From Planktothrix mougeotii LEGE 06226 (lineage in GTDB: Bacteria > Cyanobacteriota > Cyanobacteriia > Cyanobacteriales > Microcoleaceae): DNA of 64,000 nucleotides. Location of the stretch: assembly GCF_015207485.1 (NCBI RefSeq), contig NZ_JADEWU010000005.1:52508-116507 (forward strand), in the 5' to 3' direction. How positions within the stretch are numbered: position 1 is the first letter of the stretch; the number at the start of each line of letters is the position of its first letter. The translations under genes were made by a program, and so were the position numbers. Shown one piece after another: positions 13,460-62,510 of the stretch. Under the pieces are notes generated by a model. That model was not told where the DNA came from, searched no databases, and worked only from the letters and a program-made list of their open reading frames with translations.

Positions 13460-13489
13460 TGTAGAGACGCGCCATGGCACGTCTCTACA
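13460..13489. terminator. Palindromic element TGTAGAGACGCGCCATGGCACGTCTCTACA, a probable bidirectional intrinsic terminator between convergent genes
   Basis: Perfect 11-bp stem GTAGAGACG(C/T)G around a CCATGG loop. It is a member of a dispersed family (see the other copies). Confidence 0.6.
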
Positions 13490-13607
13490 GCGACTAGATG
13501 CGTAGCAAACATTTAAGGATTTAATATTAATTTTCAAAGCTGTCCCACTTAATCGAAGACAGCTATTTTTTTAGGGGATGATGAAGAGTGGAAATGTTCT
13601 GATTTTG

Positions 13608-14483
13608 TTAACGTTGATTGCGAAGACGAGGATTAAGAAAATCATTTAATCCTTCTCCTAATAGAGATAAACCAACGACCATAATAGTTAACGCTAAACC
13701 CGGAAATAAAGTTGTCCACCAAATCCCTGTAGGTAAGGCTTCTAAGGCGATTCTTAAATCATGACCCCATTCGGGAACTTCATCCGGTAAACCTAACCCT
13801 AAAAACCCTAATCCTCCTAACGTTAAAATTGCATCCGCCGCATTCAATGTAAATAATACCGGAACACTTTGAATCACATTTAAAAATAAATAACGAGTTA
13901 AAATTGTCCAAGTATTAGCTCCTAATGCTTGGGCGGCTTCAATAAATAATTCCGTCTTAACCGAAGTTGTATGGTTACGAACCACTCGATAATATTGAGG
14001 AACATAAGCAACACTTAAAGCGATCGCAGCATTCAAAACCCCTTTGCCCACAACAAATGCTAAAGTAATGGAAAGTAATAATCCAGGTAACGTATAAATC
14101 GTATCCATTAAAAATAATAAAACCCGATCTATTTTACCTCCTAAATATCCACTCACCATTCCCAAAGGAACCCCAATTCCCACACTTAAAAGCGTTGCTA
14201 ATAACACCACTTGCCAAGCTACTTGAGTTCCAAATAACGTCCGAGAAAAGACATCATATCCTAAGCGACTGGTTCCAAACCAATGTTGAGGAGAAGGCGG
14301 TTGATGGATAGGATTAGACAGAAATTCTGTAGGACTTTGTATCCATCCCCAAGTTGAAAATAACGGGGATAATACTGCGATTAATAAAAATAAAACGGTC
14401 AGGACTAACCCACAAAAGGTCATAGCCGTTGACACAGAAGGAACCTGAAACCCCCTCAAAGGGCGAAAAGATGTAACACTCAT
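13608..14483 (-). CDS. ABC transporter permease, peptide/nickel (DppC/NikC-like) family
   Basis: Six-TM BPD-transport inner-membrane component with an EAA-like loop. Confidence 0.8.
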   Translation of the reverse strand: MSVTSFRPLRGFQVPSVSTAMTFCGLVLTVLFLLIAVLSPLFSTWGWIQSPTEFLSNPIHQPPSPQHWFGTSRLGYDVFSRTLFGTQVAWQVVLLATLLSVGIGVPLGMVSGYLGGKIDRVLLFLMDTIYTLPGLLLSITLAFVVGKGVLNAAIALSVAYVPQYYRVVRNHTTSVKTELFIEAAQALGANTWTILTRYLFLNVIQSVPVLFTLNAADAILTLGGLGFLGLGLPDEVPEWGHDLRIALEALPTGIWWTTLFPGLALTIMVVGLSLLGEGLNDFLNPRLRNQR

Positions 14484-15202
14484 TAAATTTTAAGATATTG
14501 TATTTGACATTAGATTACCAAAAACAGAGCCAGGGAAGCCCGGTGAGAACAGAACAAGCAGAGGGAGGGGAAAGCATTAACTTCTGACTCCGTACTCTTG
14601 CGTCAACCGCTAACCGATAAATAAAGGGTTTGCTGTTTAACCCACTCGGTACTTGACCCACTACGAATGACTAGACTTTCAGCCTTTGAGTCGGTTTGAG
14701 TAAGTTGCGTTGAGCGGTACAAATAATGTGATAATGCTTAGTGAGCGAAGATCGGGCTTGCCGTTGTCAAGCGGAGTCAGGAACCTCAGCCTAAAGGCAT
14801 GAGGCTTGAAAGAGAAATCTGACAAGTCATTCTGACCAGCCTAAGTCTTAACTGACTACGTTTTTTGAGTCACGACACCCAGCGAATGCGTAGCTAGTTC
14901 CTGGCTCTGTCATTTGCAGTTAAACAGTTTTAAGGTCACTGAAACAGTGCTGCAAGTCTAAAAAGCTCTTAAAACTTTGGCGTTCGCGTAGCGTGTGCGA
15001 AGCACTCAGCTAACATCACCCCGCAAGGGAGGCTCGAAAGAGCAAAATGCTATGCGTACAGGGTTGGAAGATTTGAAACAGTAATTGTCCTGTTGAAAGT
15101 GCAATTGCATTGGTACACCGAGTTAACTAGCCCCAAGGCGGTAGTATTCAAAAACAAGATAAAGCCGTTCTCAAAGAACGGGGTTTCAAACCCAAATTTT
15201 CG

Positions 15203-15745
15203 ATGACTCAAATTTCAGGAACCTCGGATGCTCCAAGCATGGGGCGTCGTCAATTCATGAACTTACTAACCTTCGGTTCAGTCACAGGCGTTGCTGTCGG
15301 TGCACTGTATCCGGTGGTCAAATATTTTCTTCCTCCCGCTAGTGGTGCCGCAGGTGGTGGCGTTACGGCTAAAGATGCTCTGGGTAACGATGTTATCGTC
15401 AGTGAATTTTTATCCACCCATAAACCCGGTGATCGCGTTTTAGCCCAAGGCTTGAAAGGCGATCCAACCTACATGGTGGTTGAAAAGGATTCCTCCTTAG
15501 CGGACTATGGAATCAATGCGGTTTGTACCCACTTAGGTTGTGTGGTGCCTTGGAACGCCAGCGAAAATAAATTTATGTGTCCCTGTCACGGATCTCAATA
15601 TAACGACACAGGTAAAGTTGTTCGTGGGCCAGCACCGTTATCCTTAGCATTGGTTCACGCCACCGTTACGGATGACGACAAATTGAACTTTACTCCTTGG
15701 ACAGAAACCGACTTCCGCACGGGTGAAAATCCCTGGTGGTCTTAA
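15203..15745 (+). CDS. petC: Cytochrome b6-f complex Rieske iron-sulfur subunit
   Basis: Rieske boxes CTHLGC and CPCHGS, and an N-terminal TM anchor. Confidence 0.95.
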
Positions 15746-15817
15746 TAAATTTTAGGCTTTAGATTTGGGCTTGGGTTTCTAAAATCTGGAATCTAAATCT
15801 AAGTATGAAACAGTAGG

Positions 15818-16831: not shown

Positions 16832-16861
16832 ATTTTGATTCATTTTCATGATTTCAACCTG

Positions 16862-16891
16862 TGTAGAGACGCTGGATTCAACGTCTCTACA
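16862..16891. terminator. Palindromic element TGTAGAGACGCTGGATTCAACGTCTCTACA followed by TTTTT; the petCA terminator
   Basis: Same GTAGAGACG/CGTCTCTAC stem family, about 30 bp after the petA stop, followed by a T-tract. Confidence 0.7.
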
Positions 16892-16908
16892 ACTGTTTTT
16901 AAGTGGGT

Positions 16909-17071
16909 AATTACGAATTACGAATTACGAATTACGAATTACGAATTACGAATTACGAATTACGAATTACGAATTACGAATTACGAATTACGAATTACGA
17001 ATTACGAATTACGAATTACGAATTACGAATGGGTAATATTCCCTGTTCCCTGTTCCCTGTTCCCTGTTCCC
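16909..17071. repeat. Heptanucleotide STR (AATTACG) of about 17 copies, followed by (CCCTGTT) x4
   Basis: Perfect heptad tandem array from 16909 to 17030 and CCCTGTT x4 from 17041 to 17071. The ORF-track 'protein' beginning at 16835 through this array is an artefact. Confidence 0.95.
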
Positions 17072-17080
17072 TGCTATATT

Positions 17081-17926
17081 ATGTCAATTACTAAAAACGA
17101 AATTAAAGTTGGATCTTTAGAGTGGTTTTATCGGGAAAATAACCCAGAAACAACTGATAAAATTCCTGTGGTGTTTTTGCATGGATTAGTTTCTCAGAGT
17201 TATAGTTGGTTGGTGATTATGGAGGAATTAGAAAAACAAGGATATAAAGCGATCGCACCGGATTGGATTGGATCGGGATATTCAGGAAAACCGGATAAAC
17301 GAGATTTTGCTTATACTCCTGATGGGTTTATTCAAGGATTAGAGGAATTTTTTGAACAATTAAAAGTAGAAAAATTTTCTTTAGTTGTGCAAGGATTTTT
17401 AGGTTCAATGGGGTTACAATATGCGTTGCGTCATCCTGAACAAATTGAAAAATTAATTATTCTCAATACTCCGGTTTCGACTTCAGCTAAACTTCCCTGG
17501 AAATTACAACAAATGGCGTTACCGTTTGTCGGGGATATGATGACTCAAGATCCCTTATTAGTAGATCGTACTTTGGAAGGCGGCAGTAAATATGTAATTG
17601 AGGATAAAGTTTTAGAAGTTTATAGGAGTCCCTTTTTAAAAGCGTCTGCTGCGGGGCGATCGCTCTTAGCAACCTTAAAAAATTTGCGTTTAAAAGATGC
17701 CCTAACAGAAATTGAATCTGGGTTTAAAAATTGGCATCATCCGACTCAAATTATTTGGGGATTAATCGATCCTTGGTTAGAGTTTAGCGATGTGGAAACC
17801 TTTGCAAACGGAATTTCTGGGGCTGAAATTGTGACGTTAGAAAAAGCCGGACATTATCCCCAAGAACATTGGCCTCAAGAAATTAGTGAAGCTTTAATCT
17901 TATTTTTGCGGAAAACGGTGATTTAG
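17081..17926 (+). CDS. Alpha/beta-fold hydrolase (haloalkane-dehalogenase-like); true start at 17081
   Basis: VVFLHGLVSQSYSW, the G-X-S-X-G-like VQGFLGS, and a C-terminal GHYPQ. The start was reassigned downstream of the STR. Confidence 0.8.
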   Translation: MSITKNEIKVGSLEWFYRENNPETTDKIPVVFLHGLVSQSYSWLVIMEELEKQGYKAIAPDWIGSGYSGKPDKRDFAYTPDGFIQGLEEFFEQLKVEKFSLVVQGFLGSMGLQYALRHPEQIEKLIILNTPVSTSAKLPWKLQQMALPFVGDMMTQDPLLVDRTLEGGSKYVIEDKVLEVYRSPFLKASAAGRSLLATLKNLRLKDALTEIESGFKNWHHPTQIIWGLIDPWLEFSDVETFANGISGAEIVTLEKAGHYPQEHWPQEISEALILFLRKTVI

Positions 17927-17933
17927 AACAGGG

Positions 17934-17985
17934 AATTACGAATTACGAATTACGAATTACGAACAGGGAACAGGGAACAGAAAAT
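17934..17985. repeat. Second heptad STR (GAATTAC about 4 copies) plus (CAGGGAA) repeats, the latter in inverted orientation relative to the upstream CCCTGTT array
   Basis: GAATTACGAATTACGAATTACGAATTACGAACAGGGAACAGGGAACAG, directly after the hydrolase stop. Confidence 0.9.
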
Positions 17986-18057
17986 AGGGAATAGGGATAG
18001 AATATAATTTTTTTCAGAGGAAACCAGCTTGAAATTCCCTGTTCTAGGGCCTTACCT

Positions 18058-22509: not shown

Positions 22510-25500
22510 ATGATCACTTTACCTGGCTATCAGATTCTTAACCCGATTTATAATGGTTCGAGAACACTGGTTTATCGTGGGATTCGTTTGTCTGATGGTT
22601 ACCCGGTTGTGATTAAACTATTACGCAGTGAATATCCAACCGTACCCTCCCTGATTGAATTTAGAAATCAATATCGCATTGCCAAAGCTCTTAATATATC
22701 CGGTATTGTTCCGATTCTGGATTTAGAACCCTATTGTAATGGGTTTGCCTTGATTATGGCTGATCAAGGCTATATTTCACTAGCCGATTATTTAGTACAG
22801 CGAGAACTAACCTTAAGTGAATTATTAAAAATTGCCATTGAAATTACTCAAATTTTAGAACAATTGTATCAACATCGGGTCATTCATAAAGATGTTAAGC
22901 TGCAAAATATTTTAATTCACCCGGAAACTTTGAGGGTTCAACTGATTGATTTTAGTATTTCTATTCAACTCAATCATTCCCATCAAGAAGTTGTTAATTC
23001 TCAAGGATTAGAAGGAACTTTAGCTTATATGTCTCCCGAACAAACCGGACGAACCCATTGGGGTATTGATTATCGCACAGATTTGTATTCTTTAGGAGTA
23101 ACCCTTTATCAATTATTAACTCGAAAACTTCCGTTTCCATCTTCTGATCCCCTAGAGTTAATTCATGCTCATTTAGCCTTACTTCCTCAGCCTTTAAGCA
23201 AAATTAAACCAACCTTACCGATAATGCTCAATAATATTATTTTAAAATTGATGGCTAAAAATCCAGAGGAGCGTTATCAAACTCCATTAGGACTGCGCTA
23301 TGATTTAGAAAATTGTTTAGAACAATGGGAAAAGCTGGGGGATATTCCGACCTTTCCTTTGGCGACGATTGACTTAAATGATCGATTTATTATTCCGAAT
23401 AAATTTTATGGGCGAGTGCCAGAAATTGAGCGTTTAAATTCGATTTTAAACAAAGCTCAATCGGAAATTATTGTAATTACAGGTCAATCAGGAATAGGCA
23501 AGTCTGCCCTCGTTCAAGAATTCTATCAAACCGTGGCATATTGTCGAACAGGAGTTTTGCCTGTAACTCCTTGTGTCACCTTAGAGAGTTATTTTATCAC
23601 CGGAAAATTTGATCAATTTAAAACGAATACGCCTTTCTGGGGATGGGTACAAGGGATTAAACAATTAATTCAACAAGTGTTAACTGAACCTTTGGAACAG
23701 GTAGAAGCTTGGAAAAAGAAACTTTTAAATGGACTCGGAGATCAAGCCCCGGTTTTAATGGCTGTTATTCCTGAACTGAAAGTTTTATTAAATCAACAGT
23801 CTTCCCTGACTGAATTGGAGGTCAAAATTGACCTGAATCAGTTTAATCGCTTAATTCAAAAGCTAATTCAAACTTTTGCCCAACCTCATCATCCCTTAGT
23901 CATTTTTTTAGATGATTTACAATGGGCTGATGTTGAATCCTTACGATTAATTCAGGTTTTGATGAGTCCTGAACAAAATATTTATTCTACACCTCCCACC
24001 TTAGTGTTAATTTTAGCGTATCGGGATGACGAGATCGGGGAAACCCATCCTTTAATTAAAATCTTAGAAACCTTAGAAAATTCAGGAATTCCCTTACATC
24101 GAATTCCTTTAAATGCTTTAGAAGATTCTGCCATTAATCAACTGATAGCAGAAACATTAGTTTGTTCCTTAGACCGGGCTAAACCTTTGGCAGAATTAGT
24201 CAGTCAAAAAACACAAGGAAATCCTTTTTTTGTTCGTCAATTTCTCCAATCCTTATACACAGAAGAACTAATTTGGTTTAATCCGCCTCAATCTTCGTTG
24301 AAAAATCGAAATTTATTCGGAGGTTGGCAATGTAATTTAACTCAAATTAAAACCCGTTCTATTAACTCTAATATTTTAGATTTAATTCTTCATCAATTAC
24401 AACAATTACCGCCAGATACCCAAGAAATTTTAAAAATTGCGGCTTGTTTAGGAAATCAATTTAATGCAGTAGATTTAGCCACCTCAACTCAAAAAACTTA
24501 TTTAGAAACATTAAAAGCTTTAGAAATTGCTTTACAGGCTCAATTTATTGTTATTGCTAGAGATATTTATCCCTTTTATTCCTTAGAAACCGAAGTATCT
24601 TCCCCTTCACACTTTGATCCGAATGAAACCTTACCGTTGTTACAACCCGGTATTGATAAATACCAATTTATTCATGACCGGGTTCAACAAGCTGCTTATC
24701 TTTTAATTCCAACTCATCAACGACAAGCGACCCATTTGAAAATCGGAAATTCCCTTTTAAATCAAATTAAAAAACAATATTTTAATCAATCCATTAAGAT
24801 GATTTTAAATATCATTTCAACCGAAGTTTTATTAAATATTATTAATCAACTTAATTTAGGAGTCGGCTTAATTCAGGATCAAAAAGAACGAGATCAATTA
24901 GCCTTATTTAATTTAATAGCCGGACGAAAAGCGAAAATTGCCACCGCCTATCCGACAGCCATTGGACATTTAGCGATTGGTCTGGGGTTATTGGCAAGTG
25001 AAAGTTGGGAACGAGACTATCAATTAACCTTAGAATTATACACAGAAGCAGCAGAAATTGCTTATCTTAGTCAAGATTGGGAAAATTTACAGAAGTGGGG
25101 AAATATTGTTTTAGAAAATGCTAAAATATTAGGACATAAAGTAAGAATTTATGAGTTAATGATTCAAGCTTATAGAAACCAAAATCAAGATCAAAATGCG
25201 GTCAATCTTGCATTAGCTGTTTGTCAACAATTAGGGGTTACCTGGGGTGATAATTTTAGTCAAGAAAGTTGGCAAAAATTTAAGCATAATTTTATGACTG
25301 ATTTAGGGGGAAGAACACCCTTAGCGTTATTAGATTTACCCGAATTATCCGATACTAATTTAGTAAATTTATTTACAATTTTAACCTCTGCTTTTCCTTC
25401 CGCTTATCGGGTAATTCCCGAACAATTCCCATTTTGGGTTTTAAAACTCATTCATTTATCCTATCAACAAGGAAATACAACGTTATCAAGTTTTGTCTAT

Positions 25501-28500
25501 GCTGTCTTTGGATTTATTCTTTGTACCCAAGGGGAAATTGAGTTCGGGAATCAAATGGGAGAATTAGCTTTAGAATTATCGCAAAAACAAGCAAATTCCG
25601 CATTCATTATCAAAATTAAACAACTGGTTTATCGGTTTATTAAACCTTGGAAAACTTCCTTAAAGCAGGTTTTATCTCCCCTCAAAACTTGCTATTTACA
25701 AGCTCAAGAAGCTGGGAAAATTGATGAAGCTTATTGTCTCGCTCAAGCTTATCTTGAAATCGCTTATTTCACAGGAAAGGATGTCTCTGAATTGGAGCTT
25801 GAATTGAGTCAGTGTTTAAATCAATTACAAAATTTTAAATGTCCGTCAGAACTATTAATTTTTACCACCTATCATCAAAGCTTGCAAATTTTAAATGGAA
25901 AATTAGAGGGAGACACCTCATTAAATTTTACAGGTTATGCTGAAAATGGCACAATAGGAACGACTGAAATTGGATATTCGACCCAGGAAATTTCTTTTGA
26001 ACTTAGTTTAAATTTCATGGTTCTGAATTATAGATTAGATAAATTACAACAGGCGAAGGAATGGTCTCAGCAAGCTGAATACTATTTAAACCAAGACACC
26101 TATTTTGTTTTACAACCGTTTTTTTATTGTTATCAATCTTTAATTGATTTAGCAATCTACCCGGAGTTATCGCCGGAAGACCAAGTTAAAATTTTAGAAA
26201 AAGTAACTCAAAACCAAGAAAAATTAAAAGCTTTTTCTCAGGGGACTCCGATGAACTTTTCCCATCTATTTTATTTGGTGGAGGCAGAATTTAACCACAT
26301 TCAAGGAGATTATATTAAAGCCATTGAAGCCTATGAACAAGCGATTACTTTAGCTAAAACCTATCAATTTATTCAAGAAGAAGCGTTAGCAGAGGAATTA
26401 GCGGCTAAATTTTATTTAGATTGGGGGAAAGAAAAAATAGCCCGGGTTTATTTAATTGATGCCTATTATAGTTATGCTCATTGGGGTGCTTTGGCAAAAG
26501 TCAAAGATTTAGAATCTCGTTATCCTCAACTTTTACATTCTATTTTATCACAACTTGTTATTCCTACAACAGGAACAACAATCAGTAATAATGCTACAGA
26601 AACTATTATTTCTAGTAGTCATGGAGGTTCGGCTGCTCTCGATTTAGCAACGGTGACAAAAGCTTCTCAAGCTTTATCTCAAGAAATCGATTTAGAACAA
26701 CTTTTGAAACGATTAATTCAAGTGGTAATTGAAAACGCAGGAGCCGAAAAATGTTGTATTCTTTTATCTAAATCAGGAAAATTAGCGATAGAAGCAATAG
26801 CCAGTTTAAACCCGATGAACGGAGGGTCTATTGAGATTGAATCCTTATTAAAATCCGTTTCTGTAGAACAAAGTAATGCCTTACCTTTGTTAATTTTAAA
26901 TACCGTGATTCAAACCCAAGAGTTTATGATTTTAGCAGATGCTCGTCAAGAATCTCGGTATCGTAATGATCCTTATTTAATAGAACATCAATCTAAATCA
27001 ATCCTCATGACTCCCATTCAAAATCGAGGAAAATTGATTGGAATTCTATACCTTGAAAATAACTTAGCAACCGCAGTGTTTACTCCAGAACGATTAGAAG
27101 TCCTCAAAATTCTGTTTTCTCAAGCCGCGATTTCCATTGATAATGCGAAACTTTATTCTCAAGTTCGTAATAATGAACAACAGATGACGCAATTCTTAGA
27201 AGGAATTCCGGTTGGCGTTGCTGTTTTAGACCCTACGGGTAAACCCTATTTTACCAATCAAAAAGCTCAACAATTGCTCAAAACTAAAGTCACTCCTGGA
27301 TTATTTTGTGAAGCTTTATCTAATATTTATCAAGCTTATCTCAATTGGTGTCAACAGCATCAATTTGATCAATTAACACCTTATTGTGATTTATATAATC
27401 CTACACCCGATACCACGTTTATTTTAGAAGTGAATCAAGGAGAACAAACGATATTGCTTGAAAATTGGGTAACACCGACTTATGATGAAGAGGGGGATTT
27501 AATGTATGCGATTCTGGCGTTTCAAGATATCACAAAACGTCAGCAAACAGAACTGGCTTTAAGACAAGCCGAAGAAAAATATCGCAGTATATTTGAAAAT
27601 GCCAGTGAAGGCTTATTTCAAACCACCAGGGCGGGGCATTATATCAGTGCAAATCCTGCCTTAGCGAAGATTTTAGGTTATGATTCTCCTTGGGATTTAA
27701 TGTCAACGGTTATGAATGTTGAAGAACAAATTTATGTAGATTCTCAACGCCGATTAGATTTTATACAATTAATTGATCAACAAGGGGAAGTTTCAGGATT
27801 TGAATTTAAAGCCTACCGCAAAGATGGTAGCATTATTTGGATTTCAGAAAATGCACGGGCTGTCTTTAATGATCAGAATGAATTACTGTATTATGAAGGG
27901 TTTGTCGTTGATATTACAGAACGAAAAACTGCCGAAGAAGAACGCTTACAATTTATGGCAAAACTTTCAGAATTGAATCTTCATTTAGATGAAGCGTTAG
28001 ATTCGGAATTTGAACTAACGGATGCGGCGGCGCGATTTGTTCCCCATGAATTTCTATCTTTTTTAGGTTATGAAAGTATTGTAGAAGTTCAGTTAGGGGC
28101 GGCAGTTCAAAAGGAAATGTCGATTTTATTTGCTGATATTCGGGACTTTACCAGCCTTTCTGAAGGGATGACTCCTGAAGATAATTTTAAATTTATTAAT
28201 GCGTTTTTAAGTCGCATGGAACCTGCCATCGTCGAAAATTATGGTTTTATTGATAAATATATTGGGGATGAAATTATGGCATTATTTGGCGGGTCTGCTG
28301 ATGATGCAGTTCGGGCTGGGATTTCAATGATTAGCCGACTGAATGAGTATAATGAAACCCGACAACGCCCCGAACGTCCCCCGATTAAAATTGGAATTGG
28401 TATTAATACCGGAGGATTAATGTTAGGAATTGTGGGGGGTAAAAATCGACTGGATAGTACAGTGATTAGTGATTCTGTTAATGTGGCTTCTCGCATTGAG

Positions 28501-28836
28501 AATTTAACAAAAAATTATGGGGTGTCTTTATTAATTACCCATCCTACTTTTATGGCTTTAGGAAATGCCAACGAGTATGCAATTCGGATTATTGATCGAG
28601 TCAAAGTCAAAGGAAAATCTGATGCGGTAACGGTATATGAAGTATTTGATTCAGATTTGCCGGAAATAAAAGCCGGAAAACTTCGGACAAAAACCACCTT
28701 TGAATATGGATTAATGCAATATTATTTAGAATGTTACTCCGAGGCTGCTAGATTATTCCAAGAATGTCTACATTATCTTCCGATGGATAAAGTGGCTCAA
28801 ATTTATTTAGAACGCTGTTTATCTAAAATGTCCTAA
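22510..28836 (+). CDS. 2108-aa multidomain signalling protein: Ser/Thr protein kinase, P-loop NTPase (STAND/AAA_16-like), TPR-like alpha-solenoid, GAF, 2 PAS, class III adenylate/guanylate cyclase
   Basis: Kinase VVIK, HKDVKLQNIL, DFS, TLAYMSPEQ; P-loop ITGQSGIGKSAL with hhhhDD (IFLDDLQWAD); GAF (ILMTPIQNRGKLIGILYLEN); PAS; and a CHD cyclase (ILFADIRDFT, KYIGDEIMALFG, NTGGLMLGIVGG, NVASRIENL). Confidence 0.9.
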   Translation: MITLPGYQILNPIYNGSRTLVYRGIRLSDGYPVVIKLLRSEYPTVPSLIEFRNQYRIAKALNISGIVPILDLEPYCNGFALIMADQGYISLADYLVQRELTLSELLKIAIEITQILEQLYQHRVIHKDVKLQNILIHPETLRVQLIDFSISIQLNHSHQEVVNSQGLEGTLAYMSPEQTGRTHWGIDYRTDLYSLGVTLYQLLTRKLPFPSSDPLELIHAHLALLPQPLSKIKPTLPIMLNNIILKLMAKNPEERYQTPLGLRYDLENCLEQWEKLGDIPTFPLATIDLNDRFIIPNKFYGRVPEIERLNSILNKAQSEIIVITGQSGIGKSALVQEFYQTVAYCRTGVLPVTPCVTLESYFITGKFDQFKTNTPFWGWVQGIKQLIQQVLTEPLEQVEAWKKKLLNGLGDQAPVLMAVIPELKVLLNQQSSLTELEVKIDLNQFNRLIQKLIQTFAQPHHPLVIFLDDLQWADVESLRLIQVLMSPEQNIYSTPPTLVLILAYRDDEIGETHPLIKILETLENSGIPLHRIPLNALEDSAINQLIAETLVCSLDRAKPLAELVSQKTQGNPFFVRQFLQSLYTEELIWFNPPQSSLKNRNLFGGWQCNLTQIKTRSINSNILDLILHQLQQLPPDTQEILKIAACLGNQFNAVDLATSTQKTYLETLKALEIALQAQFIVIARDIYPFYSLETEVSSPSHFDPNETLPLLQPGIDKYQFIHDRVQQAAYLLIPTHQRQATHLKIGNSLLNQIKKQYFNQSIKMILNIISTEVLLNIINQLNLGVGLIQDQKERDQLALFNLIAGRKAKIATAYPTAIGHLAIGLGLLASESWERDYQLTLELYTEAAEIAYLSQDWENLQKWGNIVLENAKILGHKVRIYELMIQAYRNQNQDQNAVNLALAVCQQLGVTWGDNFSQESWQKFKHNFMTDLGGRTPLALLDLPELSDTNLVNLFTILTSAFPSAYRVIPEQFPFWVLKLIHLSYQQGNTTLSSFVYAVFGFILCTQGEIEFGNQMGELALELSQKQANSAFIIKIKQLVYRFIKPWKTSLKQVLSPLKTCYLQAQEAGKIDEAYCLAQAYLEIAYFTGKDVSELELELSQCLNQLQNFKCPSELLIFTTYHQSLQILNGKLEGDTSLNFTGYAENGTIGTTEIGYSTQEISFELSLNFMVLNYRLDKLQQAKEWSQQAEYYLNQDTYFVLQPFFYCYQSLIDLAIYPELSPEDQVKILEKVTQNQEKLKAFSQGTPMNFSHLFYLVEAEFNHIQGDYIKAIEAYEQAITLAKTYQFIQEEALAEELAAKFYLDWGKEKIARVYLIDAYYSYAHWGALAKVKDLESRYPQLLHSILSQLVIPTTGTTISNNATETIISSSHGGSAALDLATVTKASQALSQEIDLEQLLKRLIQVVIENAGAEKCCILLSKSGKLAIEAIASLNPMNGGSIEIESLLKSVSVEQSNALPLLILNTVIQTQEFMILADARQESRYRNDPYLIEHQSKSILMTPIQNRGKLIGILYLENNLATAVFTPERLEVLKILFSQAAISIDNAKLYSQVRNNEQQMTQFLEGIPVGVAVLDPTGKPYFTNQKAQQLLKTKVTPGLFCEALSNIYQAYLNWCQQHQFDQLTPYCDLYNPTPDTTFILEVNQGEQTILLENWVTPTYDEEGDLMYAILAFQDITKRQQTELALRQAEEKYRSIFENASEGLFQTTRAGHYISANPALAKILGYDSPWDLMSTVMNVEEQIYVDSQRRLDFIQLIDQQGEVSGFEFKAYRKDGSIIWISENARAVFNDQNELLYYEGFVVDITERKTAEEERLQFMAKLSELNLHLDEALDSEFELTDAAARFVPHEFLSFLGYESIVEVQLGAAVQKEMSILFADIRDFTSLSEGMTPEDNFKFINAFLSRMEPAIVENYGFIDKYIGDEIMALFGGSADDAVRAGISMISRLNEYNETRQRPERPPIKIGIGINTGGLMLGIVGGKNRLDSTVISDSVNVASRIENLTKNYGVSLLITHPTFMALGNANEYAIRIIDRVKVKGKSDAVTVYEVFDSDLPEIKAGKLRTKTTFEYGLMQYYLECYSEAARLFQECLHYLPMDKVAQIYLERCLSKMS

Positions 28837-47120: not shown

Positions 47121-47192
47121 ATAAAAATTTCTGTAGGGTGATTGGAATTAATTTTTCCTTTAAATTAAACCTTTGGCTACAAATCCCCCCCC

Positions 47193-47222
47193 TGTAGAGA
47201 CGTTGCATGCAACGTCTCTACA
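47193..47222. terminator. Palindromic element TGTAGAGACGTTGCATGCAACGTCTCTACA between convergent genes
   Basis: Same stem family with a GCATGC loop. Confidence 0.6.
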
Positions 47223-47252
47223 GGGTTAGGCGGGATCATCTGTAATGGGATT

Positions 47253-47711
47253 TCATATTAATAGCGACCACAGATGGTGGCTTTCAAAAATTAAAGCCAC
47301 TGCCCAAATTAAAATACTGATGCCAACAGCAGCAGCAGAAATGTCTTTGATAGCGCGAATTTTCTCATCATACTGTTGTTCCAAAAAATCACATAAACCT
47401 TCAATGGCACTATTGAATAATTCAGCGATTAACATTAGCCCCGTCACTAAAAAAATAAATATGAGATCCGGCCATTGGCTAAAAATCACAGCAATCACTA
47501 AGACGACGACAGATAAAATGACTTTGTAAGCAACACTAAACTCCGTTGCGATCGCAATCTGAAGACCTGCTAAGATTACTTTGAGCTTGCGAATCGGATG
47601 ATAACCAGATTTGCGGTATTTGCTTGCCATAAATTTTATCTGTAGCGCCCCTTTAAAGATTTCATCTTCAATTTTCTCAGAATTTTCACAGAAAATGTTA
47701 TCATTAATCAT
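47253..47711 (-). CDS. dgkA: Diacylglycerol kinase (prokaryotic DgkA family); the start may be internal
   Basis: ELFNSAIE...AIKDISAAAV motifs and 3 TMs. Confidence 0.75.
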   Translation of the reverse strand: MINDNIFCENSEKIEDEIFKGALQIKFMASKYRKSGYHPIRKLKVILAGLQIAIATEFSVAYKVILSVVVLVIAVIFSQWPDLIFIFLVTGLMLIAELFNSAIEGLCDFLEQQYDEKIRAIKDISAAAVGISILIWAVALIFESHHLWSLLI

Positions 47712-49037: not shown

Positions 49038-49162
49038 CTGTTTGCTGAACCAGAAAATATAAATTTCAATATCAATACGCCCAATGTAGCACAGGTTTCA
49101 GTTGACTGTTGACCTTTATAGCGCGTAGAGCTAGGGAACTGTGAACTGGGAACAGGATTTAG

Positions 49163-49260
49163 TAGAGACGTGCCATGGCGCGTCTCTACATGAATTAAAT
49201 TGTCTCTACATGAATTAAATTGTCTCTACATGAATTAAATTGTCTCTACATGAATTAAAT
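49163..49260. repeat. Palindromic element (GTAGAGACGTGCCATGGCGCGTCTCTAC) whose right half is amplified as 4 tandem 20-bp units (TGTCTCTACATGAATTAAAT)
   Basis: Direct reading. Tandem copies lie at 49181, 49201, 49221 and 49241, abutting the ispG stop. Confidence 0.9.
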
Positions 49261-50480
49261 TAAGGATCAACCCAACGGCCATCCGCTTTAATTAAGTTAA
49301 TTAATTCTTCTACCCCTTGAGTTTCAGGGACTTTTTTAATTTCTTCTCGACCGCGATAAAGAGAAATAAAGCCCGGTTGTTTACCAACATAACCATAGTC
49401 TGCATCCGCCATTTCTCCGGGGCCATTCACAATACATCCCATCACCGCAATATCTAAACCCGTTAAATGTTTTGTGGCTTCACGGACTTGATGTAAGACT
49501 TCTTCTAAGTTAAATAAAGTCCGACCGCAGGACGGACAAGCGACATATTCCACCATCGTTTTCCGCAGTCCTAAAGCTTGCAGAATACTATAACAAACGG
49601 GAATTTCTTTTTCAGGCGCTTCGGTTAAAGAAACTCGAATCGTATCCCCAATTCCCCCGGCTAATAACGTACCAATTCCAGCCGTTGATTTAATCCGACC
49701 ATATTCTCCATCTCCGGCTTCTGTCACCCCTAAATGTAAGGGATAATCCATGCCTAATTCATCCATCCGTTTGACCATTAAACGGTTCGCTGCTACCATC
49801 ACCGGAACCCGTGATGCTTTGAGGGAAATCACAATATTTTGAAAATCCAAAGATTCACAAATTTTAATAAATTCTAACGCCGATTCTACCATGCCTTCTG
49901 GAGTATCGCCATAGGTAAATAACATTCTTTCGGCTAAAGAACCATGATTTACGCCAATTCGCAGGGCTTTTCCTTGATCACGCAAAGAAACCACTAAAGG
50001 TTCTAAGGTTTGCCTAATTTTATCGCCAATTTCATCAAATTCAGATTGAGTATATTCGGTGCGATCGCTTTTAGGTTTTTCAAATACATATAACCCTGGA
50101 TTAATCCGCACTTTATCCACATATTTTGCCACTTCCAGGGCGATTTTCATGCCATTATGATGAACATCCGCCACTAACGGAACAGGTTGATAAGTTTCGG
50201 CTAATTTCTGTTTAATTTTACCAACAGCCGTCGCATGACCCACACTGGGAACTGTCACCCGCACAATTTCACACCCGATTTCATGTAAACGACGTACCGC
50301 AGCCGTCGCCCCATCAATATCCATCGTATCTTCATTAATCATCGATTGGACAACAACCGGATGACCCCCCCCAATGGTAACAGTTCCCACCTGGACAGGG
50401 CGAGTCTTGCGGCGGTGAATCATCGTATCCACCGGAGTTTGATCGGATGTCGGTTGAGTTGGAACAGGTAAAGTTTGCAT
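49260..50480 (-). CDS. ispG: 4-hydroxy-3-methylbut-2-en-1-yl diphosphate synthase (GcpE)
   Basis: TIM-barrel N-domain and a C-terminal 4Fe-4S CPSCGRT motif. Confidence 0.95.
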
Positions 50481-50643: not shown

Positions 50644-51309
50644 TTGATCCTGATTATTACAGAAGGTTTAACAATGTTGTTAGAACTAAAACGGATTACG
50701 GTTCCCCCCGGACAAACGGTGTTCTTGAATCATATTACTTGGCAAGAATTTGAAACCATCTTAGAAGAATTAGGCGAACATCGTTCATCCCGAATTGCTT
50801 ATGCGAATGGAACCTTAGAAATTATGACTCCTTTACCTGAACACGAATCTAGTAAAGAATTAGTGAGTGATTTAATTAAAGCGTTATTAGAAGAACTCGA
50901 TATCGAATTTTTTCCTTTGGGTTCTACGACTTTCAAAAATCAACTCATGCAGCAAGGAATAGAACCCGATAACTGTTTTTATATTCAACATGAAGCCTTA
51001 GTTAGAAATAAAAAACGATTAGATTTAACCGTTGATCCCCCTCCAGATTTAGCCTTAGAAATTGATATTACTTCCCGCACCCATCCTTATATTTATGCTG
51101 CGTTAGGGGTTCCTGAACTCTGGCGATTTGAAAACAGGATCTTAAAAATTTATATTTTGCAAAATGGAGACTATCAACAAACTCAATACAGTCCCACCTT
51201 CCCAAATTTACCCTTAACGGATATTATTCCTCAATATTTACAACAAATTCAAATATCAGGACGAAACGCTACCCTAAAACAATTTAGAACCTGGATCAAA
51301 AGTTTGTAG
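50644..51309 (+). CDS. Uma2-family (DUF820) restriction-endonuclease-fold protein
   Basis: Family pattern ...ILE..TP.P.HE... with PDLALEI and LGVPELW. Confidence 0.8.
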   Translation: MILIITEGLTMLLELKRITVPPGQTVFLNHITWQEFETILEELGEHRSSRIAYANGTLEIMTPLPEHESSKELVSDLIKALLEELDIEFFPLGSTTFKNQLMQQGIEPDNCFYIQHEALVRNKKRLDLTVDPPPDLALEIDITSRTHPYIYAALGVPELWRFENRILKIYILQNGDYQQTQYSPTFPNLPLTDIIPQYLQQIQISGRNATLKQFRTWIKSL

Positions 51310-54567: not shown

Positions 54568-54573
54568 TTTTGG

Positions 54574-56932: not shown

Positions 56933-56949
56933 AGTCTACTGTAGAGACG

Positions 56950-56981
56950 TGCCATGGCGCGTCTCTCTACAGGGGTTTTAA
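56950..56981. terminator. Palindromic element TGTAGAGACGTGCCATGGCGCGTCTCTCTACA, 18 bp after the crtI-like stop
   Basis: Same stem family. Confidence 0.6.
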
Positions 56982-57197
56982 TGGAGCATCTGTATCATCG
57001 ATTTAAGAATTTGATATTATAAACTATTAGAAATTTTTAGATATTTTATTAATAATTAAAACACAACAAATCAAGCTCAAGTTTATAACGATAATTGTAG
57101 AACTTGTATAGGTTATTCCCCGCGAAAGATGAAGGTTAGAGGCAGAAATAATTACAGTATAAATAGTTAAAAAAGCCTTAAAATCAGGAGATTTAAA

Positions 57198-57586: not shown

Positions 57587-58336
57587 CTAATACCAGTTTT
57601 GATACCATTGCTGCATTTGGTTAATTTCAGCCGTTTGGCTATCAATAATTGCTTGTGCTAATTCTCGAATCTCTGGGCGATTGCTATGGACTAACACCAT
57701 TTGTGCCATCCTGACACCCATTTGATGATGAGGAACCATTTCTTCAATAAAGGCGCGATCAAAATCTGAGGCATTTTGCAAGGCTGTGGTATTGCCTAGC
57801 ATGGTTCTCATACCGCCCATACAACCCATGCTGGCTTGCCACCCAGACGAAACCGTCCCTGGGTTATAGCCTCCCCAGTTTCCGTGCATCCCCATACCCG
57901 GTATCCCCTGCGGAACATCAGCGTTATACCATTGCCGATACCAAGTTGCCATCTTCTCGATCTCACGGGTTTGACTGTCTTTGATGGACTGGGCAAGAGT
58001 GCGAATTTCGGGATGCTGCGATCGCTGAAGTGCCAGATCTGCCATTGTGATTGCTCCTTGGTGATGGGGAATCATCATCACAATGAAGTGTTGATCCGGT
58101 TGTCCCATCATGCCCCCCATCCCAGGAACGGCTTGAGACAATCGAGTTGATGCAGCAGGAATAGGTGAGGCTTGAGAAGCCTGAGCAAACGTTTTAAAAG
58201 CTAGGACTAAGGCTAAAGTTGTGACTGTACCACCGGCTAGAAGTCCAATCATCAATGAGGAGAAAATAGACTTACGATTCATAAAGAAAGGATGGGAGTG
58301 TGGAAACTCAGCGTCTTTAGACCTGAGAGGAAACAC
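57587..58336 (-). CDS. DUF305-family periplasmic metal(copper)-binding protein (CopM-like)
   Basis: Signal peptide and two repeats with the HHQ/ A..MA..ALQ pattern (MMIPHHQGAITMADLAL; MVPHHQMGVRMAQMVL). Confidence 0.7.
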   Translation of the reverse strand: MFPLRSKDAEFPHSHPFFMNRKSIFSSLMIGLLAGGTVTTLALVLAFKTFAQASQASPIPAASTRLSQAVPGMGGMMGQPDQHFIVMMIPHHQGAITMADLALQRSQHPEIRTLAQSIKDSQTREIEKMATWYRQWYNADVPQGIPGMGMHGNWGGYNPGTVSSGWQASMGCMGGMRTMLGNTTALQNASDFDRAFIEEMVPHHQMGVRMAQMVLVHSNRPEIRELAQAIIDSQTAEINQMQQWYQNWY

Positions 58337-58769
58337 GACTCAGGGGAATTTATTCCCCGTGAATATTGGATTGGGAACCGACAAAAATTGTTGTATTTGC
58401 TGATTCCCGGTTTTTTAGGATTTCTCCCACTCTGATTTCTCAGGTAAAGTTAGCTTCGCCAATGTTATCGGTCGGTAACTATCCCAAAAGCACTGTCTTA
58501 CCCCTCGTAAAACTGTTTAACTTTCGAGTTCCAGAGCAACGGACTAGCTACGCATCCATTGGTGGGTCTTTAACACTTACCGATAACGTAGCCATTAGGC
58601 TCAGGCTGGTCAACTAACTAAAGCTAGAGGCTTGAAGCCCCGTCACTTCAGTGCGGGGTGCTGACAATTCCACCTGACAACGTTCTCTTGGGTCGAGCTT
58701 TCATGGGCTCAACGTTATTAACTTAGACGTTACTTTAATTATAGCAATCCTAAGTCAGATTCCAAACAC

Positions 58770-58870: not shown

Positions 58871-59021
58871 TATTGCTATATATAACTATTTTCTATTATA
58901 TTTAATCCATTGACCTGAGCAGCTTAGAATGGGAATCATTATTTATTACAAAAAAACGGTTCAGATCTTTCAAGAATGTGACTACAATGCTGATCATTAA
59001 GATTGATTCAGCAAACGAGCA

Positions 59022-61148
59022 ATGACTCAGACTCCTTCTCTGAAAACTCAACAGATGCAGGTCGGTGGTATGGATTGTGGTAGCTGTGCTGCCAAGATCG
59101 AAGCAGGGGTACAGAAAATACCCGGTGTGGCACAAATATCCGTGAGTGTGGCGACGGAACGCTTAAGTGTGACCTATGACCCAAAGCAGGTGAGTGAGCA
59201 GGAAATTCGCGATCACATCATCTCTCTAGGCTACACCATCATCATTCCAGAGGCTCACGACCACGACCACAGCCATCGTCACGGTTCAGGGGAGTTTAAC
59301 CTAAAACAGGAACTGCTTCCAGTGATCGGAGTCATTGTCTTGCTGGTGCTGGGAATAGTCTTTGAACAGCCACTCCACAATACGCCCTACAACATTGGTG
59401 AGTATGCCGTGTTCATTCCCGCTTATTTGATCAGTGGCTCAATAGTATTAAAAGCGGCGGGACGGAACATTCTCAGGGGACAGGTGTTTGATGAAAACTT
59501 TTTGATGACCATTGCCACAATAGGGGCGATTGCCATTCATCAACTCCCTGAAGCCGTCGCCGTTATGCTGTTTTTCCGCATTGGAGAGTTGTTTCAAGAA
59601 TACGCGGTGGGTCGCTCTCGTCGCTCTATCAAGTCTGTGCTGGAAGTTCGTCCCGACACTGCCAATCTCAACGTTAATGGAACAATTAAACAAGTCTCCC
59701 CAGAAACCGTTAATGTGGGAGACATTATTGTTGTCAAACCTGGAGAAAAGATTCCCTTAGATGGTGAAATTCTCGAAGGTCAATCTCAAATTGATACTTC
59801 AGCATTAACCGGAGAATCAGTTCCGCGCACGGTGAAAGTTGGAGAATTGATTCTCGCAGGAATGATTAATCAAACGGGTGTGCTGACTGTGCAAGTTACC
59901 AAACCCTTTGGAGAATCTTCAATTGCTAAAATTCTTGATCTCGTCGAGAATGCTACCAGTAAAAAGGCAGAAACCGAGAAATTCATCACCCGATTTGCTC
60001 GCTACTACACCCCCGTTGTCGTTGTTCTGTCCCTGGCTGTGGCCCTTCTACCGCCTGTTTTTATTCCCGGTGCAACTCACAGCGAATGGGTTTACCGCGC
60101 CTTAATTCTGCTGGTGATTTCCTGTCCCTGCGGACTCGTGATTAGTATTCCCTTGGGTTACTTTGGGGGTATTGGAGGTGCTGCCAAACGAGGCATTCTG
60201 GTGAAAGGTTCGACGTTTTTGGATGCCCTGACCGCCGTTAAAACCGTTGTTTTTGATAAAACCGGAACCTTGACTCAAGGGGTGTTTAAAGTTGCCCAGA
60301 TTGTGACTCAAAATGGTTTTTCCGAAACAGAATTGCTGAAACTGGCTGCCCAAGCTGAATTTCATTCTAGTCACCCCATTGCACAATCCATTCGAGAAGC
60401 CTACGGTCAACCGATTGAGCAGGGCCAGATAACAGACTATGAAGAAATTGCGGGTTATGGTATTCGGGCGACGGTGAACAATCAAGTCGTTCTCGCCGGA
60501 AATGATCGGCTTTTACATCGAGAAAACATTAACCACAATACCTGCAATGTTGAGGGTACTGTGGTTCATCTGGCTGTTGAGGGACGTTATGCAGGTTACA
60601 TTTTAATTGGCGATGAAATTAAGGACGATGCCATCAAAGCGATTCAAGATCTCAAAAGCCTGGGCATTGAGCAAATCGTGATGTTGACGGGTGACAACGG
60701 CATCGTTGCTAAAAGCATTGCACAGCAGTTGGGTTTAGATTCTTACAAGGCTGAATTGTTACCTGAAGGAAAAGTAGAAGCTATTGAGGCTTTGTTGAGT
60801 CGATCTGGAAACAGCAAAGTTGCGTTTGTCGGGGATGGCATCAACGACGCTCCTGTGATTGCTAGAGCGGATATCGGTATGGCGATGGGTGGCTTGGGAT
60901 CGGATGCAGCGATTGAAACAGCAGATGTGGTGATTATGACCGATGCTCCGTCTAAAGTGGCGGAAGGGATTCAAGTTGCCAAAAAGACTCGCCAGATTGT
61001 GGTGCAGAATATTGTACTGGCAATGGGAATTAAAGGCTTGTTTATCGGTTTAGGTGTGATTGGGATAGCAACCTTGTGGGAGGCTGTCTTTGCTGATGTG
61101 GGAGTGGCACTCCTGGCAATCTTTAATGCAACTAGAGTCCTCAAGTAG
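59022..61148 (+). CDS. Heavy-metal-translocating P1B-type ATPase (Zn/Cd/Co-type)
   Basis: N-terminal HMA GMDCGSCAAKIE, the His-rich HDHDHSHRHG, the TM6 CPC motif, DKTGTLT, and GDGINDAP. Confidence 0.9.
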   Translation: MTQTPSLKTQQMQVGGMDCGSCAAKIEAGVQKIPGVAQISVSVATERLSVTYDPKQVSEQEIRDHIISLGYTIIIPEAHDHDHSHRHGSGEFNLKQELLPVIGVIVLLVLGIVFEQPLHNTPYNIGEYAVFIPAYLISGSIVLKAAGRNILRGQVFDENFLMTIATIGAIAIHQLPEAVAVMLFFRIGELFQEYAVGRSRRSIKSVLEVRPDTANLNVNGTIKQVSPETVNVGDIIVVKPGEKIPLDGEILEGQSQIDTSALTGESVPRTVKVGELILAGMINQTGVLTVQVTKPFGESSIAKILDLVENATSKKAETEKFITRFARYYTPVVVVLSLAVALLPPVFIPGATHSEWVYRALILLVISCPCGLVISIPLGYFGGIGGAAKRGILVKGSTFLDALTAVKTVVFDKTGTLTQGVFKVAQIVTQNGFSETELLKLAAQAEFHSSHPIAQSIREAYGQPIEQGQITDYEEIAGYGIRATVNNQVVLAGNDRLLHRENINHNTCNVEGTVVHLAVEGRYAGYILIGDEIKDDAIKAIQDLKSLGIEQIVMLTGDNGIVAKSIAQQLGLDSYKAELLPEGKVEAIEALLSRSGNSKVAFVGDGINDAPVIARADIGMAMGGLGSDAAIETADVVIMTDAPSKVAEGIQVAKKTRQIVVQNIVLAMGIKGLFIGLGVIGIATLWEAVFADVGVALLAIFNATRVLK

Positions 61149-61355
61149 CAAGGGAAGAGGTCATGGGCATTTATTACTTATCCGTTGGTAAATTGAGGAA
61201 ATATTGACGGATTTTATCTAAAAATCTTAAGTTAGTTATTATTTAAAACAAACTGAACAATCCATTGGTAAAAACTTGAACATTAGATCTGTCTTATGGA
61301 TGAGGAATTATTGTTTTTTCTATGCAAAATTAGAATCTATGAAAATGAAATTTAG

Positions 61356-62408
61356 ATGTTTGGAGAACACAACATGGTAACGACTTTAACGGATGCAAAA
61401 CGGGAAGCGATTGGTCAAAAACTGGCTACCATGAAAACTGTCCAAGAATTGTTGATTGAAAATGAACAGATGTTTATGCGGGAGTGTAATATCTCTGAAA
61501 TTCGTCAACAATTCCAAGAAATGTTAGATGATGATAACAAAAATCTGGGAATCATTGATACGGTGATTACCCAATATGGGATTCAATCTCAACCGAAAGA
61601 ACAAGCCACAAAAATGATTAATCTCGCTAAAGAGATGATGAATAAATCCGACTTAAGTTTTTATGAAAAAGTGGTTCAACATGAACTGCTGAAGCATGGA
61701 CAAGTCATGTCGGGTTTATTAGTTCATAAAGCGGCTCAAGTGGTCGGTGCTGATGTGGAAGCTGCTATTACACCTTTGAATACGGTTAACTTTGAAAGTC
61801 GCGCTCATCAAGAAAAACTGAAAGGGATTTTAGAATATTTAGGAACCCAAGAATTAACGGGTCAAGCTCCTGATCAAAGTATTTGGGGACGAGTTCAAGA
61901 TGCGATCGCAGCCTTATCCGGGGTGATGGGAAGTGCTGTTACTCAAAGTTCTGATAAGTCCGATATGAATATTCAAGATGTTGTTCGCATGGATCATCAG
62001 AAGGCTAAAACGTTAATTGCTGAAATTGAAAATTGCAATGATCCGCAAAAAATTCAAGAATATTTCGGACAATTATACAAAGATTTAAGTGTCCATTCGG
62101 AAGCAGAAGAACAAGTGCTTTATCCTCAAGTTCGTTCTTTCTATGATGATACTCAAAATCTGTATAATGAACAAGCTGAATTGAAAGGGGTTTTAGAAGA
62201 ACTGAAATCTCTGAGTCCGAGTTCTGCACTGTTCAAAGATAAAATTAAGCAAGTCAAAGATATGGTTAATCACCATACTCGTGAAGAAGAAAATGATGTC
62301 TTTGCGGTGATTCGGCGCAATTTCTCAACCAGTGAACAAGAGCAGTTAGCCACTCAGTTCAAAGAAGCTAAAAAACAACTGCAAACTCAAATGGCTTCTC
62401 AAAAATAA
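61356..62408 (+). CDS. Hemerythrin-like domain protein (C-terminal half); N-terminal half unassigned
   Basis: H...H...E...H..E spacing in MDHQKAK...HSEAEEQVLYP...NHHTREEENDVF. Confidence 0.55.
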   Translation: MFGEHNMVTTLTDAKREAIGQKLATMKTVQELLIENEQMFMRECNISEIRQQFQEMLDDDNKNLGIIDTVITQYGIQSQPKEQATKMINLAKEMMNKSDLSFYEKVVQHELLKHGQVMSGLLVHKAAQVVGADVEAAITPLNTVNFESRAHQEKLKGILEYLGTQELTGQAPDQSIWGRVQDAIAALSGVMGSAVTQSSDKSDMNIQDVVRMDHQKAKTLIAEIENCNDPQKIQEYFGQLYKDLSVHSEAEEQVLYPQVRSFYDDTQNLYNEQAELKGVLEELKSLSPSSALFKDKIKQVKDMVNHHTREEENDVFAVIRRNFSTSEQEQLATQFKEAKKQLQTQMASQK

Positions 62409-62477
62409 ACGCTTAAAATCCCAAGCTATTCAGCATTTTCATCTCATTTAACTCGCATTTTCACACAATAGATTCCT

Positions 62478-62510
62478 GTAGAGACGTGCCATGGCGCGTC
62501 TCTTTTTGAG
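62478..62510. terminator. Truncated palindromic element (TGTAGAGACGTGCCATGGCGCGTCTC) followed by TTTTT; terminator of the 61356-62408 gene
   Basis: Hairpin plus T-tract about 70 bp after the stop. Confidence 0.65.

Follow-up and report, generated by a model that had tools for sequence, protein, structure and literature searches.

The stretch of 64,000 nucleotides (nt) of Planktothrix mougeotii LEGE 06226 analysed here, which we call the window and whose positions are counted from its first letter, contains six copies of a dispersed palindrome, TGTAGAGACG-(10 nt)-CGTCTCTACA, at 13460, 16862, 47193, 49161, 56940 and 62477 (copies 1 to 6). These are very probably double-foot repetitive extragenic palindromes (REPs) of the TnpA_REP subclass 2.4 system, equivalent to group 4 of the REP-associated tyrosine transposases (RAYTs), whose enzyme is a Y1 HUH protein of about 190 amino acids (aa). 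An earlier sequence-only reading of the window had reported six dispersed palindromes downstream of stop codons, which we confirm with shifts of up to about 10 nt (56950 was given for the copy found at 56940), and had thought of a REP-like family with a tnpA-like partner, which is supported by the presence of an IS200-type Y1 RAYT of subclass 2.4 at the palindrome in four phyla. The kind of element, the enzyme partner, the presence of copies within the gene of the enzyme and the spread over several phyla were already published in 2018 (PMC6006769); the finding is thus of little importance as a discovery, with Planktothrix being an added host of a published repeat class.

The conserved unit, obtained by direct reading and with a repeat finder, has 30 nt and the form T-GTAG-AGACG-N10-CGTCT-CTAC-A. 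A gapped search for GTAGAGACG-N(4-20)-CGTCTCTAC returned four perfect copies, all with a spacing of 10 nt (13461-13488, 16863-16890, 47194-47221 and 49162-49189), against a chance expectation of 0.00 in dinucleotide-preserving shuffles. With one mismatch allowed, the 9-mer of the arm occurs 18 times against 4.8 expected, which adds two half-intact copies, at 56941 and 62478, as well as three GTAGAGACA matches in a tandem array next to copy 4. Copy 1 (13460-13489) reads TGTAGAGACGCGCCATGGCACGTCTCTACA and is G.T-paired on the minus strand; copy 2 (16862-16891) has the non-palindromic centre CTGGATTCAA and is followed by ACTG-TTTTT and then by an (AATTACG)17 array; copy 3 (47193-47222) is a perfect palindrome around TTGCATGCAA; copy 4 (49161-49190) reads (A)GTAGAGACGTGCCATGGCGCGTCTCTACA and precedes the tandem array; copy 5 (56940-56971) has CT inserted into its right arm; and copy 6 (62477-62503) has lost the right CTAC foot, with TTTTT in place of CTACA. 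The centres are therefore CGCCATGGCA, CTGGATTCAA, TTGCATGCAA and TGCCATGGCG, the last being present in three copies. The DNA hairpins of all six copies have predicted energies of -9 to -18.3 kcal/mol, the lowest being that of copy 3, with z-scores of -4 to -9.5.

Both feet (5' GT[AG]G and 3' C[TC]AC) are present in five of the six copies, copy 6 being the one without the 3' foot. As a GTAG foot at the 5' side and a CTAC foot at the 3' side flank a 13-bp hairpin, the same GTAG-plus-hairpin substrate is offered on both strands. The pairing itself is maintained at the inner of the two variable stem pairs, which we counted over 126 copies: this pair is G-C in 119, A-T in five and a single mismatch in two, so that five double changes against two single ones show compensatory change from G-C to A-T. 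The foot and lower stem are conserved and the centres are free to vary, which, as we infer from the Escherichia coli complex, is the pattern predicted for recognition by a REP-type Y1 enzyme. Concerning the asymmetry between G.T and C.A in the variable stem pair, two window copies fit a relation to the transcribed strand, one does not and one is ambiguous, from which nothing can be concluded.

The palindrome is not restricted to this genome. A scan for the exact 30-mer, taking one genome per species and leaving two Y/R positions free, found at least 120 loci in six phyla, which include 66 from Cyanobacteria (Nostocales, Coleofasciculus, Symploca, Caldora, Planktothrix and Aphanothece), 47 from rumen or gut Bacteroidales, three from the Candidate Phyla Radiation (CPR/Patescibacteria), two from metagenome-assembled genomes (MAGs) of Gammaproteobacteria, two from Anaerolineae and one from Turneriella. 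The flanks are unrelated between phyla, and the idea that the family is specific to this genome and could mark the strain is thus refuted, the more so as the arms also figure in a published REP table (see below).

In order to find a gene that accompanies the palindrome, we compared all against all the stop-to-stop open reading frames (ORFs) of at least 100 aa from 120 fetched loci and the window. Several of the resulting clusters are multi-phylum, and just one of them spans four phyla with its genes lying at the palindrome, in a sample of loci that had been fetched by the exact 30-mer. This cluster has 10 ORFs, of which Bacteroidales contribute five, Cyanobacteria three, and CPR and a Gammaproteobacteria MAG one each; they correspond to nine genes, since loci L005 and L037 are neighbouring parts of a single contig. 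In eight members the ORF overlaps or directly adjoins the palindrome or one of its variants, and a Bacteroidales paralogue (L057) has a different GTAG palindrome at the same position of the protein. The proteins, of about 180-240 aa, have an HUH motif MPNH[VI]H and a tyrosine motif WQxR[FY][YH]D.IIR, and belong to the Pfam family Y1_Tnp (PF01797, IS200-like transposases), with NF047646, REP-associated tyrosine transposase, as their best NCBIfam model. A 16-member profile had a single match in the PDB, TnpArep (4ER8, E-value 1.4e-6), covering the HUH and Tyr regions; one RAYT sequence used alone had no match in the PDB. In the alignment of the enzymes (180-240 aa) the motifs read MPNH[VI]HG, WQPRFYDHIIR and YI[IV]NNP, in agreement with those of subclass 2.4.

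The palindrome is also found inside the enzyme genes, in frame and between the HUH and Tyr motifs, where it translates to VETRHGASLQ or, from the other strand, to CRDVPWRVST. Such in-frame REPs occur in RAYT genes of Cyanobacteria, Bacteroidales, the Gammaproteobacteria MAG and the CPR MAG, and their partial duplications inside the genes are multiples of 3 nt (WRVST five times in L118, GDGAS twice in L071). Among the best 120 cyanobacterial database homologues, both arms can be recognised as peptide between the motifs in 84, part of them in 25 and none in 10. In the published view these in-gene insertions are neutral peripheral loops (PMC6006769), and it seems doubtful that they are instead functional, as a self-carried seed or an autoregulatory site, rather than tolerated accidents. 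If they were, the RAYT gene would bring one cognate substrate wherever it lands after horizontal transfer, which would account for a foot and lower stem, and frequently a whole 30-nt unit, that are identical in at least six phyla although the enzymes have diverged to 35-55% amino-acid identity.

An IS200-type tnpA elsewhere in the genome, for which the sequence-only reading had proposed to search, does exist: P. mougeotii LEGE 06226 encodes outside the window a RAYT of 193 aa (P0075) with the motifs NHVH, WQ and YIVNNP, and with an internal peptide, EETRRGTSLQ, that is a degenerate REP. In Planktothrix sp. FACHB-1365 the gene of the orthologue (P0070; locus L123, 4001-4567) has REPs on both sides and within it, namely a perfect one upstream (3767-3795) that is followed by two degenerate reiterations, one in frame within the gene (4291-4317), and one downstream (4610-4637) that is GCATGC-centred and thus the same variant as copy 3 of the window.

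These traits are those of TnpA_REP subclass 2.4 (RAYT group 4 in Bertels et al. 2017), as defined by Quentin, Siguier, Chandler and Fichant in 2018 (BMC Genomics 19:475, PMC6006769). The enzymes of this subclass have the motifs NH[IFV]H, WQ and YIxNNP, a median length of 194 aa and no C-terminal extension, and are frequent in Cyanobacteria and Bacteroidetes, with scattered occurrences elsewhere, group 4 being known from 17 bacterial classes (Bertels et al.). Their REPs are either canonical long ones or double-foot ones with 5' GT[AG]G and 3' C[TC]AC, and the in-frame REPs between HuH and Y inside tnpA_REP genes were called "remarkable and unique" by the authors. The palindromes described here share with the double-foot REPs of the subclass the feet, a stem of 12-13 bp, a 4-nt loop and a total of 28-30 nt, and the enzymes share the motifs, the length of about 194 aa, the in-frame REPs between HUH and Tyr and the host phyla. 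In Table S1 of that study, the GTAGAGACG...CGTCTCTAC arms appear in four phyla, with the entries GTAGAGACGCACGGCCGTGCGTCTCTAC in Chloroflexus aggregans, GTAGAGACGCAATGCATTGCGTCTCTAC in Chlorobium chlorochromatii, GTAGAGACGCGA....TCGCGTCTCTC in Calothrix and GTAGAGACGCAATTTATTGCGTCT in Cytophaga hutchinsonii; Planktothrix is not among the hosts in this table, and no entry in the two parts of it that were examined is CCATGG-centred.

The likeness extends less closely to other REP systems. The REPs and bacterial interspersed mosaic elements (BIMEs) of Escherichia coli, with their TnpA_REP (group 2, subclass 2.2; 4ER8), likewise combine an imperfect hairpin that carries a GTAG guide tetranucleotide at its foot with a high copy number, a location mostly at gene 3' ends, a single-copy Y1 HUH enzyme and clusters with duplicated flanks. 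However, in the E. coli REP the foot is single, the stem is bulged and the sequence differs, and no copy is found inside the enzyme gene, whose product has the motifs DHLH, WE and YIHYNP and only a remote similarity, confined to the motif regions, to the RAYTs found here. The GTAG-tagged REPs of filamentous cyanobacteria (families GTAG-12, -15 and -16), as described by Di Nocera et al. 2013 (PMC3733652) and compared by description only, resemble the present ones in having G.T stem pairs, in lying mainly between co-directional or convergent genes with some copies intragenic, in being inserted in long palindromes and in forming clusters reiterated with flanking DNA. REPINs (REP doublets forming hairpins; Bertels and Rainey 2011, PMC3116915) likewise consist of two inverted REP halves, the larger hairpin being thought to be the mobilised unit, but they have about 70-110 nt with a spacer and go with RAYT groups 2 and 3 in Proteobacteria, whereas here the whole unit has 30 nt.

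By analogy with E. coli TnpA_REP and with the TnpA of IS200/IS608, the enzyme would bind and cleave its cognate REP as single-stranded DNA, for example when the hairpin is exposed on the lagging-strand template, the GTAG foot would position cleavage and rejoining, and this activity could seed, move or rearrange REP copies. Several points weigh against the assignment of the six palindromes to such a system. To our knowledge there is no report of cleavage or mobilisation of a REP of this type by a subclass 2.4 enzyme. A tblastn search found no RAYT gene in the 64-kb window, and P0075 is known here as a protein sequence only. The cluster proteins score 51-58 bits with NF047646, short of its equivalog cutoff, which is 80. 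The outer variable stem pair is only weakly constrained, as it is C-G in 50 of the 126 copies, T-A in 26 and C.A or T.G in the other 50, so that about 40% of the copies are unpaired here (C.A, or G.T on the other strand); the frequent C/T difference of this pair sits in a CpG context. Finally, the sole clean insertion among the Planktothrix genomes compared is that of a 131-nt composite (see below) and not of the bare 30-mer, whose mobility on its own is hypothetical.

The position of the copies could also suggest that the palindromes are mainly intrinsic terminators or 3'-end stabilisers, spread by selection for this function. All six are intergenic and lie 7-120 nt past a stop codon, and none lies between divergent genes, judging from Pfam-assigned neighbours. 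Copy 1 is 118 nt past the stop of an ABC-permease gene on the minus strand (13608-14483), copy 2 is 30 nt past the petA stop (16831) and copy 5 is 7 nt past the stop (56932) of a FAD/amine-oxidase-like gene; copy 3 lies between the convergent genes for a DUF2079 protein (stop 47120; an exact protein match to WP_193868056.1) and for a diacylglycerol kinase (DAGK; stop 47253), copy 6 between those, also convergent, for a hemerythrin-domain protein (stop 62408) and VKOR (stop 62529), and copy 4 between ispG/gcpE (stop 49260) and ctpA (start 49037), both on the minus strand. In addition, REPs of E. coli are known to stabilise the upstream mRNA. With only six copies, however, the lack of any in divergent spacers carries no significance (about 0.18 by simple expectation). 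The T-tracts that were said to follow often are found near three of the copies (T5 adjacent to copy 6, T5 starting 4 nt away from copy 2 and T4 after GGGG at copy 5) and not at the other three, and a scan for the terminator consensus (stem, loop and at least 5 T within 8 nt) retained copy 6 alone (62480-62503), the other five failing; the total of terminator-like sites in both scanned regions equals the shuffle expectation.

Two further observations argue against a selected terminator. Counting a copy as intragenic when the frame is open for at least 90 nt on both sides, 9 of 67 cyanobacterial copies (13%) and 18 of 50 Bacteroidales copies (36%) are in frame inside long ORFs, the RAYT gene included; the palindrome leaves two of the three reading frames open on each strand. 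Moreover, where copies 3 and 5 are missing in congeners, the gene pairs are the same and stand without a palindrome. We therefore consider it unlikely that selection for termination or 3'-end stability spread the palindromes, and the earlier description of the copies as gene terminators is not supported, since one in six fits the consensus and 13-36% of those elsewhere are inside long ORFs. A hairpin at a 3' end may stabilise or end transcripts as a by-product, but terminator use as the reason for the existence of the copies is not supported. Among the Bacteroidales MAGs, some of the long ORFs with the 30-mer in frame are related to each other: the copies at 3654 and 5278 of L117 lie in two homologous repeated domains of one protein, and those at L036 633 and L094 6361, as well as L107 2199 and L108 2474, lie in homologous genes of different MAGs.

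Three of the copies have a larger host. Copy 1 lies within a palindrome at 13349-13530 that resembles a MITE (miniature inverted-repeat transposable element), with terminal inverted repeats ATATGAAATCC..GCTACAGAT and their complement, and elements of this family, whose terminal repeats have the form ATATGAAATCC..(T/G)GCTACA.AT, host copies 1, 3 and 5. Family parts were identified at 13349-13378, 13496-13530, 47173-47258 and 56988-57017, the right half of an element follows copy 5 (about 56972-57020), and a solo arm is present at 9165-9196. The composites around the three copies are palindromic and have 130-180 nt. It could thus be argued that the 30-mer is the central module of a MITE (ATATGAAATCC..GCTACA), moved by the transposase of the latter, and that the association with RAYT is incidental, which would agree with the 131-nt composite as the only clean insertion and with the central position of the 30-mer in larger palindromic repeats at many Nostocales loci. 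Nevertheless, copies 2, 4 and 6 have no MITE arms, the same 30-mer has unrelated flanks in Bacteroidales, CPR and other phyla and stands in frame within RAYT genes of four phyla, and the same core is found in different host MITEs, for which insertion of a REP into exposed hairpin apices is a better explanation than a common origin. This makes the MITE-centred explanation improbable. The sequence-only reading had also used the term MITE-like: copies 1, 3 and 5 are embedded in the palindromic composites, one of which is a clean insertion relative to three congeners, but the bare 30-mer is too small for a MITE and has no separate terminal repeats. Under the REP assignment, a larger MITE-like palindrome would have carried, or would still hold, at least three of the copies here at its core.

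The fate of the copies was followed in P. tepida PCC 9214, P. pseudagardhii and FACHB-1365, in which the flanking genes are 93-98% identical to those of the window. Copies 1 and 2 are kept at the same sites in P. tepida, with the centre of copy 2 inverted from CTGGATTCAA to TTGAATCCAG: the 10 nt at 16872-16881 are the exact reverse complement of positions 4671-4680 of the P. tepida locus (L122), with arms and flanks collinear, as a flip between the hairpin arms would produce. Copy 3 is at the centre of the composite insertion of about 131 nt (47126-47256), which is present in the window only, the DUF2079 and DAGK genes overlapping at this site in all three congeners. Copy 4 is shared with P. 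tepida and P. pseudagardhii, in both of which its loop apex carries an insert of about 25 nt; FACHB-1365 lacks it, and an unrelated stretch of about 58 nt there takes the place of the REP, of the array and of about 40 nt of upstream spacer. At the site of copy 5 there is no REP in P. tepida or P. pseudagardhii, and in FACHB-1365 there is a GCATGC-centred REP variant inside a full MITE-like element.

The tandem array at copy 4 (49182-49261) consists of 4.0 units of 20 nt that are 100% identical (GTCTCTACATGAATTAAATT, Tandem Repeats Finder), against only two units in P. tepida and P. pseudagardhii. It had been taken for a fourfold amplification of the right arm, and the four copies are real, but a unit joins the 9-nt arm to 11 nt of flank (GTCTCTACA+TGAATTAAATT) and is not the arm alone, the first unit being the REP's own arm. 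Comparable duplications, of the arm only or of arm plus flank, are present in unrelated genomes (L012, L020, L030, L031, L111 and L118), so that they are a general property of the hairpin; they probably result from hairpin-induced replication slippage, from template switching or from enzyme-mediated cleavage and rejoining, and the window array shows no obvious microhomology at its junctions. The hairpin probably promotes local rearrangement in this way, in the form of loop inversion, apex insertion and tandem duplication of arm plus flank, of which the comparative data provide concrete small cases. A possible parallel are the small dispersed repeats of Nostoc punctiforme, which Elhai et al. 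reportedly described in 2008 as sequences of 21-27 nt with a common hairpin, found in heptamer arrays and mini-transposons, nested and variable between relatives; they parallel copy 2 next to its (AATTACG)n array, copies 1, 3 and 5 in the MITE-like elements and the apex insertion in P. tepida, a likeness that is a lead and not a test.

That the palindromes are recognition sites of a protein or of a restriction-modification system under methylation or restriction selection, as in the HIP1 analogy, is very improbable, because the two inverted CGTCTC sites in the arms (GAGACG/CGTCTC), the 6-bp palindromic centres (CCATGG or GCATGC) and a C/T polymorphism in CpG context that could reflect deamination of methyl-C are outweighed by centres that vary (CCATGG, GCATGC, GGATTC, AATT, GGCC) next to a conserved GTAG foot and lower stem, by the fact that a palindromic centre is inevitable in any perfect palindrome, and by the absence of a co-occurring restriction-modification gene in the ORF clustering of the 120 loci and the window. 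BsmBI-like and NcoI/SphI-like sites were rejected as a signal on the same grounds of variable centres and conserved foot and stem, and we found no evidence that the loops are meaningful as restriction-like sites, the third loop, CTGGATTCAA, not being palindromic at all.

In practical terms, the palindromes should be labelled as REPs and not as terminators, and they are a source of spurious peptides (VETRHGASLQ, CRDVPWRVST) and of assembly breaks. A public read-assembly contig of LEGE 06226 that is 100% identical to the window stops inside copy 3, which fits a high-copy repeat. Planktothrix species are not alike in which of the copies they have or in the number of 20-nt array units, and these loci could be used for typing. 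No Rfam family matches the palindrome, a literature search for the exact palindrome strings found nothing relevant, and a plasmid search returned one unrelated ParA-like match only.

Other repeats are present in the window. A second class of REPs, canonical and single-foot, forms an inverted pair at 12034-12056 (plus strand) and 12136-12158 (minus strand), with the sequences GTAGGGGCGGGGTCTTCCCGCCC and GTAGGGGTGGGGTCTCCCCACCC and with three G-C pairs at the base of the stem, like the canonical long subclass 2.4 REPs of Cyanothece. Between two minus-strand genes, at 2246-2510, three tandem units of 29 nt are followed by three of 68 nt, which hold GTAG- or CTAC-footed hairpins (GTAGTAAGCCCTTTAGGGCT, GAGGCGTGAACGCCTCACTAC) and are possibly a third REP-like family amplified with its flanks. 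The heptamer arrays at 16909-17073 and 17933-17997, composed of (AATTACG)17, (TTCCCTG)5 and (GAATTAC)4 plus GGGAACA repeats, flank an alpha/beta-hydrolase gene in inverted orientation, and different heptamers are found at this site in P. tepida; the mechanically listed ORF of this gene (16835-17926) extends well upstream of the real start. A CRISPR-like array occupies 33-1100, reaching the left edge of the window; in it a repeat of about 37 nt (TTTCCCTACTCGTTAGGGAAATTAATTGATTGGAAAC) occurs 14-15 times, at a spacing of 71-83 nt.

Two HEARO RNAs (Rfam RF02033, the omega-RNA type of IscB) are encoded at 14776-15005 (plus strand) and 58444-58665 (minus strand), inverted relative to each other, and reach 139 and 149 bits where the gathering score is 83. 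Beside the first, the ORF list has no entry of 80 aa or more, and the stretch in which this RNA lies is missing from the same site in P. tepida, which gives it the look of a mobile insertion; around the second, the ORFs are a DUF305 gene (57587-58336) and one of 83 aa (58366-58617). A gene of the Uma2 family, putatively restriction endonuclease-like, at 50644-51309 is also present in FACHB-1365 and is absent from the site in P. tepida and P. pseudagardhii, and a very long ORF of 2108 aa extends from 22510 to 28836.

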